From the sequence record OZ346221.1: 45,229 bases of DNA, one strand, 5' to 3'. A program made the position numbers and the translations under genes. Positions 1,397 through 40,492 of this stretch are shown piece after piece. The first letter of the stretch is position 1, and each line of letters opens with the position of its first letter. This DNA is from a phage. The notes beneath the pieces were generated by a model. That model had not been told where the DNA came from, ran no database searches, and saw nothing but the letters and a program-made list of their open reading frames with translations.

Positions 1397-2917
1397 ATGA
1401 CCGTTAACGTTGACAACCAGCACCCACTTTATGCGCGCATCGCGCCCGAGTGGAAGATGATCCGCGATTGTGTGGCAGGGGAGCGCGCCGTGAAGGCGTG
1501 CGGCCCCTTGTACCTGCCTCATCCCGCCAGTGGCGACAATACTGACCCGAAAGCACGGGCGCGGTATAAGGCGTACAAGCAACGCGCTGTATTCCTGAAC
1601 GCCACCGCCCGCACACTTAACGCGCTGTTAGGAGTTGCCTTTGCTAAACCGGTAAGTCTCGACCTTTCCGGGGCGATGGCTGACCTGATTGACGACGTAG
1701 ACGGCAGCGGAATGCCGCTGCCGCAACTCCTGCGCGGTGCTATGTCTGAAGTTCTGCAATCTGGCCGCGCAGGCTTTATGGTTGACTACGACCGCCAGGC
1801 GCATTTTGACGAACTGGGTAACGTAGTGCCGCAGACAGCCGCCGAGATGGCGTCACACCGCCCGCTTATCCGCCTATATACGGCAGAACAGATCATCAAC
1901 TGGCGGCAGACCCACGGCGTCGATACGCTGATTGTTCTGAAGGAAACGGACGAAATCAGCACCGAAGACCCGGACGACTTCGCAAACCACGAAGTAACAA
2001 TCTGGACCGAGCTTCGCATGATTAACGGTGCGGCACACGCCCGCCGCTGGTTTTATAATGCGGACACGTCCGAGGTGCAAATGGACTTGCCGCGGGGGTT
2101 TACCCGTACCGATCTTGTGCCGCTGGTGGATGCAGCCGGTAAGGCGCTGACACAACTCCCGTTTTGCTGGTGTGGTGCGGTGGACAACAACGCAACGCCG
2201 GACGCCGCGCCGCTGGCTGATATTGCGTCCATCAACATTAAGCACTACAACGCCGAAGCGGACGTCGCCGAGATTGCGCACATAGTGGGCCAACCAACCC
2301 TGGTTGCGACGGGCTTGACTCAATCATGGGCGGACAAAAACCTGAAAGGCGGCATCGCGCTCGGTGCGACTAAGGGCGTTATCCTGGGTCAGAACATGGA
2401 CGCCAAACTGCTTCAGGCCGAAGAACGAAACCTATCGGTCGCACTGTGTGAACGCCGAGAGCTGCAAATGGCTAAACTTGGCGCGGCCCTGGTCGAGAAG
2501 GGGACCGCACCTAAGACGGCAACCGAAGCGGCCTACGATGCGCAGACTGATAACAGTATCCTGTCACTGATTGCCGGTAACGTCGAGAAGGCTTTCAACC
2601 GTGCGCTGCAAATCGTCAAGCTGTTCACGGGCGACACCGCAGATCAACGCGTAACGCTGAATAAGTTCTACACCGAAATCACGGTTGACGCACAGCTTAT
2701 GACCGCAATGATGGCGGGTGTGCAGACCGGTACGGTCCGGCTGGCGGACTTTATCAAGTGGATGATGGCCCAGGGCGTCATTGATGACTCGCAAACCGTC
2801 GAGCAGGTGGAAGACGAACTGCGAAATCAGAATCCATTGCCTCAAATGTCCCCTGATGCGGTAGAATCCACCGAAGAAGACCCGGACAAGGTAGCGGACA
2901 ATGGCGAAGACAATTAA
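1397..2917 (+). CDS. portal protein
   Basis: 506-aa ORF immediately after terL, acidic C-terminus, RBS AAGGAAA upstream; position and size typical of a portal. Confidence 0.7.
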   Translation: MTVNVDNQHPLYARIAPEWKMIRDCVAGERAVKACGPLYLPHPASGDNTDPKARARYKAYKQRAVFLNATARTLNALLGVAFAKPVSLDLSGAMADLIDDVDGSGMPLPQLLRGAMSEVLQSGRAGFMVDYDRQAHFDELGNVVPQTAAEMASHRPLIRLYTAEQIINWRQTHGVDTLIVLKETDEISTEDPDDFANHEVTIWTELRMINGAAHARRWFYNADTSEVQMDLPRGFTRTDLVPLVDAAGKALTQLPFCWCGAVDNNATPDAAPLADIASINIKHYNAEADVAEIAHIVGQPTLVATGLTQSWADKNLKGGIALGATKGVILGQNMDAKLLQAEERNLSVALCERRELQMAKLGAALVEKGTAPKTATEAAYDAQTDNSILSLIAGNVEKAFNRALQIVKLFTGDTADQRVTLNKFYTEITVDAQLMTAMMAGVQTGTVRLADFIKWMMAQGVIDDSQTVEQVEDELRNQNPLPQMSPDAVESTEEDPDKVADNGEDN

Positions 2918-5224: not shown

Positions 5225-5262
5225 TCCTCGTTGTTGGTGTGCAACCAATATATGCAACCAAT
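5225..5262 (-). promoter_or_regulatory. sigma70-like promoter for the 4453..5217 gene, with tandem TGCAACCAAT motifs
   Basis: On the - strand: TTGCAA, 17-nt spacer, TATATT, then leader ATTGGTTGCACACCAAC...GAGGA; leader nearly identical to the one upstream of 40493 (approximate coordinates). Confidence 0.45.
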
Positions 5263-24022: not shown

Positions 24023-24085
24023 TATGTGGTCCTTTTTATGGGAGGCCGTATTGCCCCCCGACGCGTTAACTATAATGCAACCAAC

Positions 24086-24556
24086 CTATTGGTTGCAAGT
24101 GAATTTTGCAACGTTTATTGCGTAAATTTTCGGGACCAAATCGCCGCACGCCCGACGAATTGCCGCGATGTTCTTCTCGCAGTCCTCAATGATGACAAGT
24201 TCAGACACGTCTGCATAGCAGACCATTTTGAACACAGCGCACGCCTTAAACTCTGGCGGCGGGGTGTCGTCCAGCATGTGGCGCATAAACAACCGGCCTG
24301 CCGGGAATACCTCCAGTTGCTCGGCGGTAGTCTCCCAGCATTCTAGCTGCCGGTTGGTCAGATACGCGATCTCGAAGCCTTGCTCTTTGTACATGCGCAA
24401 CAGCGGCAGCATATCCATGTTCAGGTCTTCGCGTACATGCGCTTTGTGCCACTTTGCCCAAAAGGTTGATTTCGTTTTTATCCCCGGCACCAGGTCGGCA
24501 CGCGCATCGCTTGAACCATTAATAACGCCATCCAAATCGCAAATCAGTAATTTCAT
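24086..24556 (-). CDS. HAD-superfamily hydrolase-like protein
   Basis: 156 aa beginning MKLLICDLDGVI, matching HAD motif I (DxDGV). Confidence 0.55.
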   Translation of the reverse strand: MKLLICDLDGVINGSSDARADLVPGIKTKSTFWAKWHKAHVREDLNMDMLPLLRMYKEQGFEIAYLTNRQLECWETTAEQLEVFPAGRLFMRHMLDDTPPPEFKACAVFKMVCYADVSELVIIEDCEKNIAAIRRACGDLVPKIYAINVAKFTCNQ

Positions 24557-25974: not shown

Positions 25975-26012
25975 GACACCCTCAATATAATGCAACCAAT
26001 ATGGTTATGCAA
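25975..26012 (-). promoter_or_regulatory. sigma70-like promoter with TGCAACCAAT motifs, for the 25686..25937 gene
   Basis: On the - strand: TTGCAT, 17-nt spacer, TATATT, followed by a hairpin plus T-run in the leader (approximate coordinates). Confidence 0.35.
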
Positions 26013-26017
26013 CCAAT

Positions 26018-34985: not shown

Positions 34986-35012
34986 AAAAAGAGGCCCGCA
35001 GATTAGCGGGCC
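34986..35012 (-). terminator. intrinsic terminator/attenuator on the - strand after the first early gene
   Basis: GGCCCGC-TAATCT-GCGGGCC hairpin followed by a T-rich run on the - strand (approximate coordinates). Confidence 0.4.
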
Positions 35013-35527: not shown

Positions 35528-35723
35528 GGTATATCTCCGATTGGTTAAGTTTAGGTGTCGGCAGTTAACTTCGTCGGTGGCCTTAACATATTGCCCGGTT
35601 GCGCGTTCTCCCGTTCGGGTAGTGGACCGGGTTATATAATCACGGTTGGGAATCCTGACACTTCGATCCGGCCCCTGCGTTGCCCCTCTCCAGTTTGCGT
35701 CCTGCATCCTGTCGACGGGGGGA

Positions 35724-35753
35724 ATAATAGATTGGTTGCAGGATAGGTGTCAA
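35724..35753 (-). promoter_or_regulatory. leftward early promoter candidate
   Basis: On the - strand: TTGACA, 18-nt spacer containing TGCAACCAAT, TATTAT; about 190-nt leader to the 35527 start (approximate coordinates). Confidence 0.45.
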
Positions 35754-35761
35754 CAACTAAT

Positions 35762-35820
35762 TTAAAAAAAAAGCGCCGAGGCAAAATGCAACGGCGCTAA
35801 CCAATAAGAGACAATGAGAC
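35762..35820 (-). ncRNA. candidate ~58-nt small RNA
   Basis: Bounded by a promoter-like element (35827-35855) and a 7-bp GC stem plus U9 terminator; no ORF; predicted RNA GUCUCAUUGUCUCUUAUUGGUUAGCGCCGUUGCAUUUUGCCUCGGCGCUUUUUUUUU. Confidence 0.3.
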
Positions 35821-35826
35821 GGGAGT

Positions 35827-35855
35827 ATTATTACACGCGTGCGCGCCCGTTTCAA
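35827..35855 (-). promoter_or_regulatory. promoter candidate for the small RNA
   Basis: On the - strand: TTGAAA, 17-nt spacer, extended -10 TGTAATAAT (approximate coordinates). Confidence 0.35.
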
Positions 35856-35868
35856 TATTCCAAAGGAG

Positions 35869-35897
35869 TTGACACCCCGCGGTTTTAGGTGTAGTTT
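35869..35897 (+). promoter_or_regulatory. rightward early promoter candidate
   Basis: TTGACA, 17-nt spacer, TAGTTT, then GGAG RBS before the 35929 ATG; inverted GGTGTCAAC / GTTGACACC copies flank the hub (approximate coordinates). Confidence 0.45.
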
Positions 35898-35928
35898 CGT
35901 TGGTCATTAACCAACCGGAGACAGAAAA

Positions 35929-36258
35929 ATGAATATTGACGACGCAATCGAAATGTTAACTAAGACTGTTTGCAGTGAGACAAGCCGGTCCTGGGCATAT
36001 ACCGATGCCGTGGGTGCGGTGCTATTTGAGATCGAACGTCTGCGACTTACCGAAAAAGAATTGCGCGCGAAGCTGGAATTACTCAACGGTACGGCAGCAA
36101 GCAAGCTGCAAAAGCACAATGAGGAAATGGAAGAATACAAAAAACAGGTTATCCGTTTGCGCGATGAGGGGAAGTCATGGGCAATGATCGCGGAGTTGAC
36201 AGGAATTAACCAAAGCACCGTGCGCTCTTGGGTACGCAATAACAAAACTTCGAAGTAA
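35929..36258 (+). CDS. HTH DNA-binding protein, putative early regulator
   Basis: 109 aa; coiled-coil middle and C-terminal helix-turn-helix-like GKSWAMIAELTGINQSTVRSWV. Confidence 0.5.
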   Translation: MNIDDAIEMLTKTVCSETSRSWAYTDAVGAVLFEIERLRLTEKELRAKLELLNGTAASKLQKHNEEMEEYKKQVIRLRDEGKSWAMIAELTGINQSTVRSWVRNNKTSK

Positions 36259-36268
36259 GGCAACGGCA

Positions 36269-38533
36269 ATGAGCTTAATTAAATTCGCTGTAACAAGACC
36301 CGCTAAAAAAGGCGAAAAAGCCAGGGCGGAAAACTTCCAGATGACAACTGATGAATTTTTCGAATTTATCAATGATGCGAAAGAAATATCATCAGTGCAT
36401 ATCAACAAGACCGAGGATAAAGCCGAGTATGCGCGCCGCAAGCGCAAGGCCGATGGCATCGTGGCATATACCAGTGACGGCCTACGCCGTAAGACCAGCG
36501 CGGTGGACCGCTCGATCCTGTTCTTTGATATCGACCGTACCGACACTCGCACCTTGCGCCGCTGCCGTAAGGCTTTCATCGATGCGGGGCTGGAGCACGT
36601 ATTCCATACAACAACCGGCGACCGCCACCCGCTGAAAGGCGGCACGCGTTGCGCACGTTTCCTTGTGCTCACAGACAAGCCCGTACCGGCGGAAGACCTG
36701 GGCCGCGTCCAGTACGCGCTGTTAGACCAACTGGGCCTGTCTGATGTGGACTTCGACGATTGCACCAAAGACACAAACCGCCTGATGTACCTACCACACC
36801 AGCAGTCTGTCATTAAGTGCCACTACGGAAAGCGCGCCAGTGTGCGTCGTCTGCTTCGCCGGGCTGACAGGCTGGGAGTGGAGAAAGAGGAAGTACGCCG
36901 CGAGCTTACCCAGGGCGACGACGCAGTGGCTGACGGCATTCTGGACTGGTGCTTCCAAGCAGGATTCGAGGAGTTATCCTCCGGTCGCGGTTATGAAGTG
37001 CCGTGCCCGAACGAACATCTGCACAGCGGCGAAGGGTCGACGGCTATTATAGTCAAGGATGGCGAGATCCGTTTCAAGTGTATGCACACCGGCAACGAGT
37101 GTTGCTCTGAGCTGAACAGACACCAGCACCTGGCGCTACGTCTTATCGGGATACCGGACCACCTGAACGTCGAGCCGCACAACATGTCACGTAAGCAAAT
37201 CGCCGCCATCCTCCCAGGGCTGGACGACGAGGAAGTCGAATCCTTATATGAACATATTGTTGATGCGGTTGGCGACGGCGAAGAATACGGCGTGTGCACC
37301 GATGCGGATCTGGATAACGAGCCGGTTGCGCTGTTCAGTAAGCACGACCCGATTATCGAGGGGTTGATTAACTTTAAATCGACCTGGTACATGGCGGGTG
37401 AGTCGAATATCGGTAAGTCTTTCTACGTGCTGGGCCAGATGGGCGCGGTTGCCGCGGGTATTCCGTTTGGTGGCGCGAAGGTCGTCCAGTCTCATTGCTT
37501 CTATTTCGACGCGGAAGGTGGCGAAGCCTCCAACCAGCGTAAAGAAGCATTGCAGATTAAATATGAGCACGACCTGGACAAGCTGCACATTATCGATCTG
37601 CAGTCACGCGGCTGGGATATCACCAGCAAATCGGGCTTGCGCGAAGTTATCAGCTTTATCAACCGCACCGCTAACGGCGAACCGGTTGGCCTGGTGGCGT
37701 TCGACTCACTAAACCAGACTGTTGCGTTGCGGTCCGCCGAGGCTAAACCGTTCGACGAGAACAACGCCAGCGATATGGGTGAAGTGGTCAAAGCGCTGAA
37801 GGCCATCGCGGAAAATACAGGTGGCAGTGCGGGCGTCATCCACCACCCGGCTAAAGGTGCAAACGGCAGCAGAACGCCACGCGGGTCCGGCGCGCTGCAT
37901 GGTGCTGTCGATTCTGCGTTCTTCCTGGAACAGCCGGACGACAACCAGCCCGGACAATTGAACCTGTATCACGAAAAGTCACGTAACGGCATCAAGCAAG
38001 CGCCGCGCGGCTTCGTCCTGCTCAAGTGCAAGGTGAAGGTGGATCTCCGCAAGTCAGAAGCGTTCGAGGCGCACCAGTCCACCAGCACCGGGCCAGACTT
38101 CGGCGACGTGGTTGCCGGATGGGACGTCAAGCCGATTGCCTCCACGCCACGCGACGAGACTCTCTACCTCGTACCGGTTGCCCTGGCACCGTTCGCTATT
38201 GAACAGGCGAAGGCGGCGGGCAAGGCCGCGGTTAAGGAAGAGAACACCGCCGGACCGCGCAACGAAAAAGAGAAAGTGCTTTATGCGGCACTGGAAAAAC
38301 TGATGGAAGATAACCCGTACCATACTGGATTCAGTAAATCGGCAATTGTCCGCCAGGCGGGACTCGCAAAAGGTGGCACTTCGACGAAGGCAATCGACGA
38401 TATGGTGGAGCGCGGGGTAATAGGTTTTTATACAGATCCGCACACCGGGGCCATCTATGGGTCTTCTAATTTGGTCATCAAATCGGATATCCCTATCACG
38501 CTTTCCGCGACCGATGACGATTTAAAAGATTAA
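36269..38533 (+). CDS. primase-helicase (zinc-binding primase-type N-terminal region, RecA-like ATPase, C-terminal winged-helix-like domain)
   Basis: 754 aa; Cys/His cluster CPNEHLHSGEG...CMHTGNECC; Walker A MAGESNIGKS; VAFDSLNQ; C-terminal GFSKSAIVRQAGL...AIDDMVERGVIGF. Confidence 0.75.
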   Translation: MSLIKFAVTRPAKKGEKARAENFQMTTDEFFEFINDAKEISSVHINKTEDKAEYARRKRKADGIVAYTSDGLRRKTSAVDRSILFFDIDRTDTRTLRRCRKAFIDAGLEHVFHTTTGDRHPLKGGTRCARFLVLTDKPVPAEDLGRVQYALLDQLGLSDVDFDDCTKDTNRLMYLPHQQSVIKCHYGKRASVRRLLRRADRLGVEKEEVRRELTQGDDAVADGILDWCFQAGFEELSSGRGYEVPCPNEHLHSGEGSTAIIVKDGEIRFKCMHTGNECCSELNRHQHLALRLIGIPDHLNVEPHNMSRKQIAAILPGLDDEEVESLYEHIVDAVGDGEEYGVCTDADLDNEPVALFSKHDPIIEGLINFKSTWYMAGESNIGKSFYVLGQMGAVAAGIPFGGAKVVQSHCFYFDAEGGEASNQRKEALQIKYEHDLDKLHIIDLQSRGWDITSKSGLREVISFINRTANGEPVGLVAFDSLNQTVALRSAEAKPFDENNASDMGEVVKALKAIAENTGGSAGVIHHPAKGANGSRTPRGSGALHGAVDSAFFLEQPDDNQPGQLNLYHEKSRNGIKQAPRGFVLLKCKVKVDLRKSEAFEAHQSTSTGPDFGDVVAGWDVKPIASTPRDETLYLVPVALAPFAIEQAKAAGKAAVKEENTAGPRNEKEKVLYAALEKLMEDNPYHTGFSKSAIVRQAGLAKGGTSTKAIDDMVERGVIGFYTDPHTGAIYGSSNLVIKSDIPITLSATDDDLKD

Positions 38534-38708
38534 ATTCTGCGCGCATTGGTTGCCGATATGGTAATTCCCATATCGGTGAATGATTAAATTTTGCGCGCAT
38601 TGGTTGCCATTTTGAGTGTTTTTACCTGGTCGTATTGGTTGCCGTGTAGTGTAAATATAGTGAATAGTTATGCAATAAAACTGCATAAAGTAAGCGGACA
38701 GAAAGCAC
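37229..38708 (+). repeat. tandem duplication unit, copy 1 (3' half of primase-helicase gene plus downstream non-coding DNA)
   Basis: Near-identical to 38709..40188 with scattered substitutions; unit about 1480 bp; junction next to GTAAGCGGACAGAAAGC (approximate coordinates). Confidence 0.8.
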
Positions 38709-40188
38709 GAGGAAGTCGAATCCTTATATGAACATATTGTTGATGCGGTTGGCGACGGCGAAGAATACGGCGTGTGCACCGATGCGGATCTGGATAACGA
38801 GCCGGTTGCGCTGTTCAGTAAGCACGACCCGATCATCGAGGGGTTGATTAACTTTAAATCGACCTGGTACATGGCGGGTGAGTCGAACATCGGTAAATCG
38901 TTCTACGTGCTGGGGCAGATGGGTGCGGTTGCCGCGGGTATCCCGTTTGGCGGTGCGAAGGTCGTCCAGTCCCATTGCTTCTATTTCGACGCGGAAGGTG
39001 GCGAAGCCTCCAACCAGCGTAAGGAAGCATTGCAGATCAAATACGAGCACGACCTGGACAAGCTGCACATTATTGACCTGCAATCACGCGGCTGGGATAT
39101 CACCAGCAAGTCGGGCTTGCGCGAAGTTATCAGCTTTATCAACCGCACCGCTAACGGCGAACCGGTTGGCCTGGTGGCGTTCGACTCACTCAACCAGACT
39201 GTTGCGCTGCGGTCCGCCGATGCTAAACCGTTCGACGAGAACAACGCCAGCGATATGGGCGAAGTGGTCAAGGCGCTGAAGGCCATTGCGGAAAATACAG
39301 GCGGCAGTGCGGGCGTCATCCACCACCCGGCTAAAGGTGCAAACGGCAGCAGAACGCCTCGCGGGTCCGGCGCGCTTCATGGTGCTGTCGATTCCGCGTT
39401 CTTCCTGGAACAACCGGACGACAACCAGCCCGGACAATTGAACCTGTATCACGAAAAGGCGCGTAACGGCATCAAGCAAGCGCCGCGCGGATTCGTCCTG
39501 CTTAAGTGCAAAGTTAAGGTAGATCTCCGCAAGTCCGAAGCGTTCGAAGCCCACCAGTCCACCAGCGCCGGGCCAGACTTCGGCGATGTGGTTGCCGGTT
39601 GGGACGTCAAGCCGATCGCATCCACGCCACGCGACGAGACTCTTTACCTCGTACCGGTCGCCCTGGCACCGTTCGCCATCGAACAGGCGAAGGCCGCTGG
39701 CAAAGCCGCAGTTAAGGAAGAAAACGCCGCCGTACCGCGCAACGAAAAAGAGAAAGTGCTTTATGCGGCACTGGAAAAACTGATGGAAGATAACCCGGAC
39801 CATACCGGATTCAGTAAATCGGCAATTGTCCGCCAGGCTGGGCTTGCGAAAGGTGGCACATCGACGAAGGCAATCGACGATATGGTCGAGCGCGGCGTGC
39901 TCGGTTTTTATACCGATCCGCACACCGGGGCCATCTACGGGTCGTCGAATATTGTCATTAAAACGAGTATACCCATCACGCTTTCTGCGACCGATGATGA
40001 TTTAAAAGATTAAATGTTGCGCGCATTGGTTGCCATTTCGAGTGTTTTTAGCTGGTCGCATTGGTTGCCGTGTAGTGTAAATATATTGAATAGTTATGCA
40101 ATAAAACTGCATAAACTAAGCGGGACAAAAAGCGGGACAAACAAGGGGCGGGACAAAGCGGGACAGCACCCCGTCCCGCCCCCGGATG
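38709..40188 (+). repeat. tandem duplication unit, copy 2
   Basis: Second copy of the 3' half of the primase-helicase gene, followed by the complete iteron element (approximate coordinates). Confidence 0.8.
38772..40013 (+). CDS. stand-alone paralogue of the primase-helicase C-terminal half (ATPase plus winged-helix-like domain)
   Basis: 413-aa ORF with GTG start and no obvious RBS; about ten amino-acid differences from the parent, most nucleotide differences synonymous; may be an untranslated remnant. Confidence 0.45.
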   Translation: MCTDADLDNEPVALFSKHDPIIEGLINFKSTWYMAGESNIGKSFYVLGQMGAVAAGIPFGGAKVVQSHCFYFDAEGGEASNQRKEALQIKYEHDLDKLHIIDLQSRGWDITSKSGLREVISFINRTANGEPVGLVAFDSLNQTVALRSADAKPFDENNASDMGEVVKALKAIAENTGGSAGVIHHPAKGANGSRTPRGSGALHGAVDSAFFLEQPDDNQPGQLNLYHEKARNGIKQAPRGFVLLKCKVKVDLRKSEAFEAHQSTSAGPDFGDVVAGWDVKPIASTPRDETLYLVPVALAPFAIEQAKAAGKAAVKEENAAVPRNEKEKVLYAALEKLMEDNPDHTGFSKSAIVRQAGLAKGGTSTKAIDDMVERGVLGFYTDPHTGAIYGSSNIVIKTSIPITLSATDDDLKD

Positions 40189-40276
40189 ACGCGGCCTGGC
40201 GGGGAGCGGGACAGCGGGACAGCACCCCAGTCTTTCAGACTAGACGGGGGTCAGTGGCCCCCCTCGTCTGAGACTG
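40113..40276. repeat. iteron element copy B (candidate replication origin)
   Basis: Six GCGGGACA-type repeats plus the same GC-rich hairpin as copy A; directly downstream of the primase-helicase region; followed by an AT-rich stretch with TGCGGNTTG repeats. Confidence 0.75.
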
Positions 40277-40435
40277 CATAAAATCCTGGATTGCAAAATA
40301 CACGGCAGCATGTTGCGGATTGCGGTCGTCGCGGAACTAGGCAACCAATGCGGGTTGTATTATGTTGAGTGAAAAATGCGGTTTGCAGTCTCAGCAGATA
40401 GCGATCAACTTTTTCATGCGCGTGATTAATATTGG

Positions 40436-40464
40436 TTGCATCCGGCCTGGCACCTTGCTATATT
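40436..40464 (+). promoter_or_regulatory. sigma70-like promoter with ATTGGTTGCA motifs, for the 40493 gene
   Basis: TTGCAT, 17-nt spacer, TATATT, then leader GGTTGCACACCAACATGAGGA before the ATG (approximate coordinates). Confidence 0.45.
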
Positions 40465-40492
40465 GGTTGCACACCAACATGAGGACTGAACA

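Follow-up and report, generated by a model that had tools for sequence, protein, structure and literature searches.

A conserved candidate small RNA gene in the divergent early promoter hub of a Dhillonvirus genome

What is encoded between two divergent early operons of a virulent phage, in a gap where annotation offers either nothing or a short hypothetical protein? The window considered here is the whole stretch of phage DNA that was analysed, 45,229 nucleotides of sequence record OZ346221.1, and the unit in question occupies positions 35762 to 35855 on its minus strand. An earlier interpretation made from the letters without database searches (hereafter the sequence-only reading) had proposed that this unit could yield a regulatory or decoy RNA of the early switch. 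Our analysis indicates that it is most likely an unannotated, genus-wide conserved gene for a non-coding small RNA (sRNA). That a discrete short RNA with the predicted ends is produced appears probable from its signals and their conservation, and we assign a probability of roughly 0.45 to the whole of the explanation we prefer, an autonomous sRNA gene whose product would pair with the first cistrons of both flanking operons.

On the minus strand, the promoter of the unit (P_mid; TTGAAA, 17 nt, AATAAT) has, 54 nt downstream of it, a GC hairpin of 7 bp that runs into nine U residues (U9). The sequence-only reading had described a good promoter with TTGAAA, a 17-nt spacer and an extended -10, and beyond it a strong intrinsic terminator; both descriptions are borne out, the promoter scoring 10/12 against consensus with the TG of the extended -10 in place, and the GC stem and U9 being directly legible. 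Transcription is predicted to start at G35820, seven nt past the -10, and the predicted RNA folds with a minimum free energy (MFE) of -16.4 kcal/mol (z = -3.3 to -4.9), leaving its first 22 nt unpaired, with an identical fold in three sequence variants. The hairpin loop measures 13 nt, including a 3-bp inner stem, and an automated terminator scan skipped the hairpin solely on account of that scan's 8-nt loop limit. Promoter matches of at least 10/12 number three in the whole 45-kb window, two of them inside the hub; the terminator U-run is the longest in the window, and this is the sole hairpin with a U-run to have a promoter of at least 10/12 positioned 20-120 nt upstream. In silico, then, the unit has the architecture of an sRNA gene, with its own promoter and a Rho-independent terminator bounding a non-coding transcript that holds no conserved open reading frame (ORF). 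The sequence features of an Hfq module are likewise present, namely U9 (at least seven U are required) and CUCUUAUUGGUU, unpaired just 5' of the stem. The opposite strand of the unit is intergenic, and no plus-strand promoter there passes the consensus scan (6/12 by eye at best). A bidirectional terminator was considered and rejected, as the plus-strand hairpin is followed by UAACCAAUAAG rather than by a U-run and nothing is transcribed into it.

The 1-kb stretch surrounding the unit matches 176 phage records at 80-99% identity, nearly all belonging to phages of Escherichia or Shigella that are classified in the genus Dhillonvirus, and by this similarity the window is a Dhillonvirus genome, that of an HK578-like coliphage. 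Dhillonviruses are HK578-like virulent siphophages with genomes of about 44-45 kb. The unit is located in a 400-bp non-coding gap (35528-35928) between the first genes of two divergent early operons. Leftward, a gene for a 168-aa protein (ATG 35527) is followed by small ORFs and a PD-(D/E)XK nuclease; rightward, a gene for a 109-aa protein (ATG 35929; gene 35929-36258), which has a domain match to an HTH_23 / sigma-70 region 4-like DNA-binding domain, is followed by that of a 754-aa helicase-primase. The remaining flanking proteins have PHROGs matches only, all of unknown function. The sequence-only reading had placed the unit between the candidate leftward and rightward early promoters (P_L and P_R), with the terminator ending just before the -35 of the former, and this arrangement stands: the U-run ends 10 nt short of the P_L -35, and P_mid and P_R stand back to back with their -35 hexamers 13 bp apart. 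As DNA, the U tract forms an A/T-rich region at -37 to -54 of P_L and is a possible UP element of that promoter. Three 'promoter' features are already present in the HK578 GenBank record at the sites of P_L, P_mid and P_R, with no RNA feature. In the records examined the locus is otherwise annotated with nothing or with a short hypothetical-protein ORF, and in none of them with an RNA.

Comparison of 22 distinct versions of the hub, collected from GenBank, IMG/VR and metagenomes, reveals where the unit is constrained. It is present in approximately 155 Dhillonvirus records at 87-99% identity, and the promoter elements, whose lack of conservation in relatives had been named as a reason to abandon the proposal, are invariant in 22 of 22 distinct relatives, both P_mid hexamers and the TG included. 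By contrast with these hexamers, nowhere does the unit vary more than in the six nt between the -10 and +1, which occur in seven versions (ACTCCC, AATTCCC, AATCCCC, ACTTTCC, AATTCTC, AAGTCCC, AAAAACC). Constraint sets in again precisely at the predicted +1: the 22-nt tail beginning there, GUCUCAUUGUCUCUUAUUGGUU, does not differ among 21 of the 22 variants, and the remaining one has a deletion. A conservation boundary at the predicted start is as expected of a functional transcript, or of a DNA site placed exactly there. Variation is also found at internal-loop positions of the hairpin and in the length of the U-run (8-13). The P_mid spacer is near-invariant (singleton transitions, and a 2-nt deletion in the variant L017) and keeps its purine/pyrimidine alternation, whereas the P_R spacer varies freely. 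This P_mid spacer (35833-35849, minus strand) could be a supercoiling-sensitive or protein-bound element.

Covariation in related genomes, which had been suggested as a check, was detected in the sole divergent lineage, comprising Ioannina, LM40P1 and L017. In L017 and Ioannina the stem reads AUCCCCG/CGGGGAU, which amounts to two double compensatory changes, and an inner A-U pair becomes G.U; the fold is identical. Judged from these alignments, the stem covariation is real but thin. Scanning bacterial genomes with a 17-mer yielded chance matches only, in unrelated taxa, and the five IMG/VR matches to the same 17-mer (L024, L025, L029, L033, L037) were all chance as well.

A candidate function for such an RNA is suggested by its unpaired tail. 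The 16-mer TGTCTC-NNN-TTGGTTA (TGTCTCNNNTTGGTTA), with two mismatches or fewer, occurs at three sites only in the genome: in the RNA tail itself (35813-35798, minus strand), and at 35923-35908 (minus) and 35532-35547 (plus), the latter two corresponding, in reverse complement, to the Shine-Dalgarno regions on either side. The tail, 5'-UGUCUC UUA UUGGUUA-3', can pair with the right-hand region, 5'-UAACCAA CCG GAGACA-3', at 14 of 16 positions and with the left-hand region, 5'-UAACCAA UCG GAGAUA-3', at 15 of 16, including two G.U. Ranked by duplex energy among the 59 annotated translation-initiation regions of phage bob, the right target comes first and the left target fourth. The observed energies of -18.2 and -17.9 kcal/mol compare with about -11.6 +/- 2.6 when the tail is dinucleotide-shuffled (p = 0.021 and 0.017), and none of 2000 such shuffles reached the two thresholds jointly. 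Variants of the right target (GGAGAC, GGGGGC, GAGGGC and others) retain pairing energies between -16.4 and -19.1 kcal/mol because A-to-G changes become G.U pairs. The left target is invariant in the main lineage, even in genomes from which the adjacent 150-nt upstream leader has been deleted. We regard this predicted tail-to-Shine-Dalgarno pairing as suggestive.

This suggestion must be tempered by several observations that weigh against the pairing or against the sRNA interpretation as a whole. The target ranking is method-dependent: co-folding that charges for target opening places the left target at rank 2 and the right target outside the top 10, and a genome-wide raw duplex scan returns many GC-rich chance sites with lower energies and is uninformative. 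The UCUC:GAGA half of the duplex would fit any purine-rich Shine-Dalgarno of this phage, and since TTGGTTA/TAACCAA belongs to a genome-wide over-represented promoter-region word, the similarity could reflect protein operators. HK578 keeps the RNA, but has another first rightward gene and no right target (-12.0 kcal/mol). L017 has changes in the RNA as well as in the left site, with no clean compensatory pattern, and no clean sRNA-target covariation was seen across the compared variants; the stem covariation described above likewise comes from one divergent lineage, that is, one event lineage only. Syntenic hubs were inspected in Guernseyvirinae relatives with a 43-48% identical helicase-primase, namely Klebsiella phage VLCpiS11a, Salmonella phage VSiP and phage LotteLoewe; divergent promoters occur there but no terminator unit, and the unit is therefore an invention of Dhillonvirus. 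Finally, no Dhillonvirus transcriptome or sRNA report was found in the literature, the sole 'transcriptome' paper on a Dhillonvirus host dealing with TiO2 stress only.

The first leftward genes of VSiP (L069, ~2010-2035, minus strand) and VLCpiS11a (L068, ~1945-1975, minus strand) have ACCAAC a few bases upstream of a GGAGAC/GAGGA Shine-Dalgarno. With ACCAAC standing before the Shine-Dalgarno in Guernseyvirinae that are without the unit, the AACCAA-Shine-Dalgarno motif predates the RNA and may serve some independent purpose.

The explanation we prefer, an autonomous sRNA gene acting on both neighbours, would operate as follows. Host sigma-70 RNA polymerase would start at about G35820 (minus strand) at the strong extended -10 promoter P_mid and stop at the intrinsic terminator, releasing a non-coding RNA of about 57 nt (55-61 nt) whose first 22 nt, single-stranded and U/C-rich, lead into a GC hairpin and a long terminal run of U; Hfq may associate with this RNA. 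The tail, UGUCUC-UUA-UUGGUUA, would pair with UAACCAA-YCG-GAGAYA over the Shine-Dalgarno of the first cistron in both operons, and the accumulating RNA would damp translation of the 109-aa HTH protein and the 168-aa protein. Among single candidate mechanisms, the best supported is that the RNA pairs with the ribosome-binding site of each flanking early gene, and we advance it tentatively; that such pairing is also the main function of the RNA is doubtful. In its most ambitious form, a single immediate-early RNA of ~57 nt would throttle the first cistrons of both early operons via a shared 16-nt leader motif, as a bidirectional shut-off or feedback switch, which we consider somewhat unlikely. 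Coordinates of all features are collected in Table 1.

Table 1. Positions of the proposed small RNA unit, its predicted targets, the flanking promoters, the recurrent motif and the neighbouring leader element (window coordinates, except for the L-numbered loci)
Feature	Coordinates	Strand	Remarks
P_mid -35 hexamer TTGAAA	35850..35855	-	direct reading and consensus scan; marked 'promoter' in HK578 record
P_mid 17-nt GC-rich spacer CGGGCGCGCACGCGTGT	35833..35849	-	palindrome CACGCGTG; 15-nt alternating purine/pyrimidine run GCGCGCACGCGTGTA
Extended -10 TG	35835-35834	-	direct reading
P_mid -10 AATAAT, part of TGTAATAAT	35827..35832	-	consensus scan 10/12, TG present
Discriminator ACTCCC	35821..35826	-	predicted untranscribed; highly variable among relatives
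Unstructured 22-nt 5' tail GUCUCAUUGUCUCUUAUUGGUU	35799..35820	-	unpaired in predicted MFE and centroid structures of three variants
Proposed seed UGUCUC-UUA-UUGGUUA	35813-35798	-	matches TGTCTCNNNTTGGTTA
Terminator hairpin, stem AGCGCCG/CGGCGCU (7 bp)	35772..35798	-	arms 35798-35792 / 35778-35772; inner 3-bp stem GCA/UGC
U9 tail	35764..35772	-	8-13 U in relatives
Proposed target 1 UAACCAACCGGAGACA	35908..35923	+	in the ~25-nt 5' untranslated region of the 109-aa HTH gene (ATG 35929)
Proposed target 2 UAACCAAUCGGAGAUA	35532..35547	-	over Shine-Dalgarno of the 168-aa gene (ATG 35527)
P_R, rightward early promoter	35869..35897	+	TTGACA (35869-74), 17 nt, TAGTTT; hexamers conserved, spacer variable
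Palindrome TTGGTcattaACCAA	35900-35914		spans P_R start site, operator-like
P_L, leftward early promoter	35724..35753	-	TTGACA (35753-48), 18 nt, TATTAT; 11/12 in consensus scan; TGCAACCAAT in spacer
Copies of the recurrent motif	5242-5262, 24078-24095, 25993-26017, 35731-35738, 38545-38641, 40025-40067, 40431-40469, others		
Leader element in L071	1083-1328		
Leader element in L072	1035-1399		
Leader element in L073	1090-1361		
Leader element in L074-L076, L078, L080, L096-L099			

Among the alternatives, the one that survives best holds that the act of transcription is what matters and that the RNA is a by-product: an RNA polymerase bound or firing at P_mid would tune its neighbours, acting on P_R through supercoiling or competition with the help of the conserved alternating spacer, and the terminator would keep P_mid from occluding P_L and at the same time supply the A/T-rich UP element of P_L. 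The tight back-to-back placement of P_mid and P_R and the U/A tract abutting the P_L -35 are in keeping with this, the near-invariant P_mid spacer, set against the variable P_R spacer, suggests an extra constraint at the DNA level, and a terminator abutting the -35 of the promoter of the same leader (see below) is also found in the unrelated PT1, Arya, L076 and L088. We nevertheless think it unlikely, as it would leave unexplained both the invariant 22 transcribed nt beside a freely varying discriminator and the 16-nt match to the two flanking ribosome-binding sites.

A second alternative turns on a word that recurs throughout the genome. RTTGGTTR is observed 26 times in the window against 5.5 expected, a count reached in 0 of 100 shuffles. 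Copies of ATTGGTTGCA are mostly paired in promoter-like contexts, with TTGCA(T/A) as the -35 and a second copy over the -10/+1, and the 10-mer ATTGGTTGC(A/C) is strongly over-represented, occurring in pairs 12-31 bp apart and sometimes as the palindrome TTGGTTGCACACCAA. The conserved tail could accordingly be a DNA operator, with the RNA complementarity arising as a side effect of repeated operators: ATTGGTTA at +17 to +24, the words in the leaders and the word in the P_L spacer would all be bound by a phage regulator that shuts the hub, for example the 109-aa HTH protein. Besides the over-representation itself, this account can call on the four motif copies within the 400-bp hub, the paired ATTGGTTGCA over -35 and -10/+1 elsewhere, the palindromic TTGGT-N5-ACCAA across the P_R start site and the HTH_23/sigma-70 region 4-like protein encoded by the first rightward gene. 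It does not predict, however, that the three-site match should extend past TTGGTTA and take in TGTCTC at a constant spacing of 3 nt, a part that has no Shine-Dalgarno role in the RNA copy; the L017 lineage has a broken ATTGGTT (TATGGTTA) and TTAGTTA as its left copy, and nonetheless keeps the unit; and an operator needs no terminator with compensatory changes. An operator is plausible and can coexist with the RNA model, and as the explanation of the conserved tail we rate it quite unlikely.

The same motif bears on two further suggestions of the sequence-only reading, that the predicted RNA echoes ATTGGTTGCA and that it might serve as a decoy. The first stands in part: the recurrent motif is real and its ATTGGTTA half is conserved in the unit, but the RNA gene holds this half and a separate TTGCA only, not a complete ATTGGTTGCA, and the TTGCA half is TCGCA in most relatives. 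The decoy idea we have dropped for want of comparative support, the TTGCA half not being conserved and ATTGGTT being broken by a 1-nt deletion in the L017 lineage.

It is improbable, in our estimation, that the RNA is real and acts primarily on the host, through mRNA targets, as an sRNA sponge, or by titrating RNA-binding proteins, whether Hfq or others. Prophages provide a precedent in sRNAs with host RNAs as their targets, among them DicF and the anti-sRNAs AgvB/AsxR, and the Hfq-type architecture predicted here (an unpaired tail, an A/U-rich segment leading into the hairpin, and a long run of U at the end) together with an immediate-early sigma-70 promoter would suit such an activity; the sole specific complementarity found, however, is to the leaders of the phage itself. 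Very improbable is a regulated attenuator resembling lambda PR'-tR'/6S, in which transcripts from P_mid would ordinarily end at the hairpin until, at some stage, a phage or host factor allowed read-through, adding a second, differently timed promoter for the leftward operon. The lambda late promoter makes a short terminated RNA constitutively until Q acts, and the tandem same-direction layout of P_mid, terminator, P_L and operon recalls this precedent. Yet P_L is a strong promoter (11/12) placed right after the terminator, such that read-through would add little and would occlude it; a hairpin with 9-13 U is a strong terminator; direct reading finds no -10-like pause element (A2/T6 hexamer) in +1 to +25; and no Q-like gene was identified in a search that was not exhaustive.

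That the unit is instead a small protein gene, the 36-aa ORF at 35907..35797, is hardly credible, its annotation in one phage and its end at a TAG just before the hairpin notwithstanding, given the truncations, frameshifts and 11-codon frame switch seen in relatives, its absence from HK578, and a start codon that has no Shine-Dalgarno and lies upstream of P_mid within the P_R leader. The sequence-only reading had stated that the transcribed segment has no ORF, which holds for the transcribed 57 nt. Two mechanically called ORFs overlap the unit from upstream, that at 35907..35797 and a 32-aa ORF at 35855..35757, and neither is conserved as a protein. The former runs from the P_R leader through P_mid and is annotated as bas15_0049, hypothetical protein, in phage PaulFeyerabend (Bas15; MZ501097), a phage with 97.5% identity to the window across the hub; several other records appear to carry the 36-aa coding sequence too, with a 'hypothetical protein' listed under the gap. 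Among 19 relatives it stops after 7, 15 or 24 codons in L013, L006 and L017, a frameshift carries it through the terminator in L005 and L008, and HK578 lacks it, so that its reading frame is lost by stop, frameshift or absence in 6 of 19 genomes. In seven more, an 11-codon stretch is read in another frame owing to a 1-nt deletion upstream of the -35 and a 1-nt insertion after the -10. From this comparison the 36-aa ORF is not a gene, and the conservation lies at the level of DNA or RNA. The coding-sequence calls in some Dhillonvirus GenBank records (35797-35907, minus strand) look spurious because the frame is not conserved. A 24-aa plus-strand ORF found by eye (35815-35889) was set aside as well; it crosses the same two indels and its Shine-Dalgarno is badly spaced.

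Next to the unit lies a second, possibly structured RNA. The P_L transcript opens with a ~160-nt structured element (35716-35557, minus strand), and patches of it at 73-94% identity are found in unrelated phages, including Drexlerviridae (tunus, JLBYU07, PHB17, KMI8), Jilinvirus (Arya, PT1) and several uncultured contigs. It is intergenic and on the same strand as the flanking genes in every case in which the flanks were examined; mostly it starts a few nt past a sigma-70-like promoter, and its end lies ~25-130 nt (mostly ~40) short of an unrelated gene's start codon. For 12 representatives RNAalifold predicts 29 pairs, 11 of them with compensatory changes. One arm folds on its own, adopting a common three-helix shape in each of the four sequence types, and one helix of 5-6 bp occurs in nine sequence versions, three of these within Dhillonvirus. 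Long unpaired blocks (GGAGAGGRGYAACGCAGGGGC, GUCAGGAUUCCCAACCGUGA, AGAACGC and ACCGACGAAG) are invariant. The leader has no Rfam match at E <= 10, and its core sequence has no match in the literature. In L005, L008, L011 and L017 it is cleanly missing relative to window positions 35560-35707, between the closing-stem halves GTCGACAGG...GACACC, and these leader-less Dhillonviruses retain the promoter and the downstream ribosome-binding motif. With this indel polymorphism within Dhillonvirus, the leader behaves like an exchangeable cassette.

The leader may represent a new leader or antitermination-type RNA motif. In position it resembles putL of HK022, a 5'-terminal antiterminator RNA of an early transcript, and the resemblance is one of analogy only; as an identity for the leader, put was rejected (~73 nt with two stem-loops, vs ~160 nt here). 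A terminator-like hairpin (34993-35012, minus strand; GGCCCGC...GCGGGCC, then TCTTTTT) is located between the first and second leftward genes and would be a natural substrate if the leader RNA promotes read-through. In L072 (PT1), L073 (Arya), L076 and L088 the -35 region of the leader promoter is directly preceded by an intrinsic terminator (e.g. CCCGCTTCGGCGGGTTTTT, GGGGCTTCGGCCCCTTTTTT); with the same layout in the window and in these unrelated phages, 'terminator - promoter - leader' looks like a recurring module.

Some further occurrences of the recurrent word were noted. The 10-mer ATTGGTTGC(A/C) is probably the operator of a phage regulator, for which the 109-aa HTH protein is a candidate, or else an extended promoter element, and GTTGGTTGCAA, which resembles it, is found at the leader-promoter -35 in the unrelated contigs L078 and L080. 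A direct repeat of ~300 bp (38400-38697 / 39880-40123, 86-94% identical) contains gcgcgcATTGGTTGCC copies and flanks a 413-aa ORF (38772-40013), suggesting a duplicated regulatory region around a gene that may be inserted; two GGGACAGCGGGACAGC repeats occur near it (40145-40228).

To our knowledge, regulatory RNAs are well documented in temperate phages and prophages and scarce for virulent coliphages. Dhillonviruses are abundant, are easily grown on E. coli K-12 and form part of the BASEL collection. Should the RNA be produced and pair in the predicted way, the unit would offer a compact and genetically tractable example of a phage that uses an sRNA to time its early genes, and a spurious 36-aa protein annotation would be corrected. 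If the bidirectional-switch version is true, the hub would hold two undescribed RNAs, including a leader common to three phage families. The adjacent leader may prove the more valuable of the two, as a new covarying RNA motif at the 5' ends of early transcripts in unrelated siphophage families.

How does the predicted RNA compare with known systems? At gathering thresholds the whole window is without a match in Rfam 15. Relaxing the cutoff to E <= 10 gives as best hits STnc480 on the opposite strand (25.8 bits vs a 72-bit threshold) and RsaE (21 vs 79), which we attribute to terminator-driven noise. By covariance-model comparison, the RNA is outside every curated family tested (Rfam, including C4, DicF and OOP-like entries). 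In architecture it most resembles the Hfq-type prophage sRNAs, of which DicF of Qin (53 nt) is an example, sharing with them an own sigma-70 promoter, a length of ~50-60 nt, a single-stranded seed and a Rho-independent terminator with a long U tail, and having imperfect pairing to a ribosome-binding site as its predicted action. It differs from DicF-type sRNAs in showing no sequence or Rfam relationship to them, in its location at the centre of the early promoter hub of a virulent siphophage, and in its predicted targets, which are the flanking early operons of the phage rather than host genes.

Short, terminator-ended RNAs of phage early regions offer two further comparisons. Lambda OOP and P22 sar are likewise short (~70 nt), constitutive and terminator-ended, lie in an early region and repress a neighbouring regulator gene. 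They are, however, opposite their target and fully complementary to it, whereas here the opposite strand is intergenic and the complementarity, 14-15 of 16 nt, is to sequences at a distance; cis-antisense action of the OOP/sar type was rejected, no gene overlapping the unit on the opposite strand within 35528-35928. The lambda PR'-tR' 6S unit also combines a strong promoter with an efficient terminator within tens of nt and an abundant short RNA upstream of an operon. It differs in that the present terminator is followed by a second strong promoter and that the transcribed sequence is under strong constraint; neither a Q-type factor nor a Q-binding element (QBE) or sigma-dependent pause element is evident here, a Q-like gene not having been searched for systematically. 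A Q-controlled leader layout was rejected, with P_L (11/12) standing between terminator and operon and no pause-like hexamer in +1 to +25.

In its predicted action the RNA is most like the c4 antisense RNA of P1/P7 (immI), a phage RNA that acts in trans through two short segments on the ribosome-binding region of a nearby transcript; two comparable blocks, UGUCUC and UUGGUUA, are spaced 3 nt apart in the present RNA and are predicted to pair. It is not a member of the c4 family, in that c4 is processed from the transcript of its own target and has a defined conserved fold, whereas here the promoter is independent and the fold different, and the C4 covariance model finds no match even at E <= 10. 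As a phage-encoded, terminator-ended small RNA the unit is not categorically new; what sets it apart is that it occurs in a virulent siphophage, that it sits in the middle of a hub of three promoters, and that it may have a dual target.

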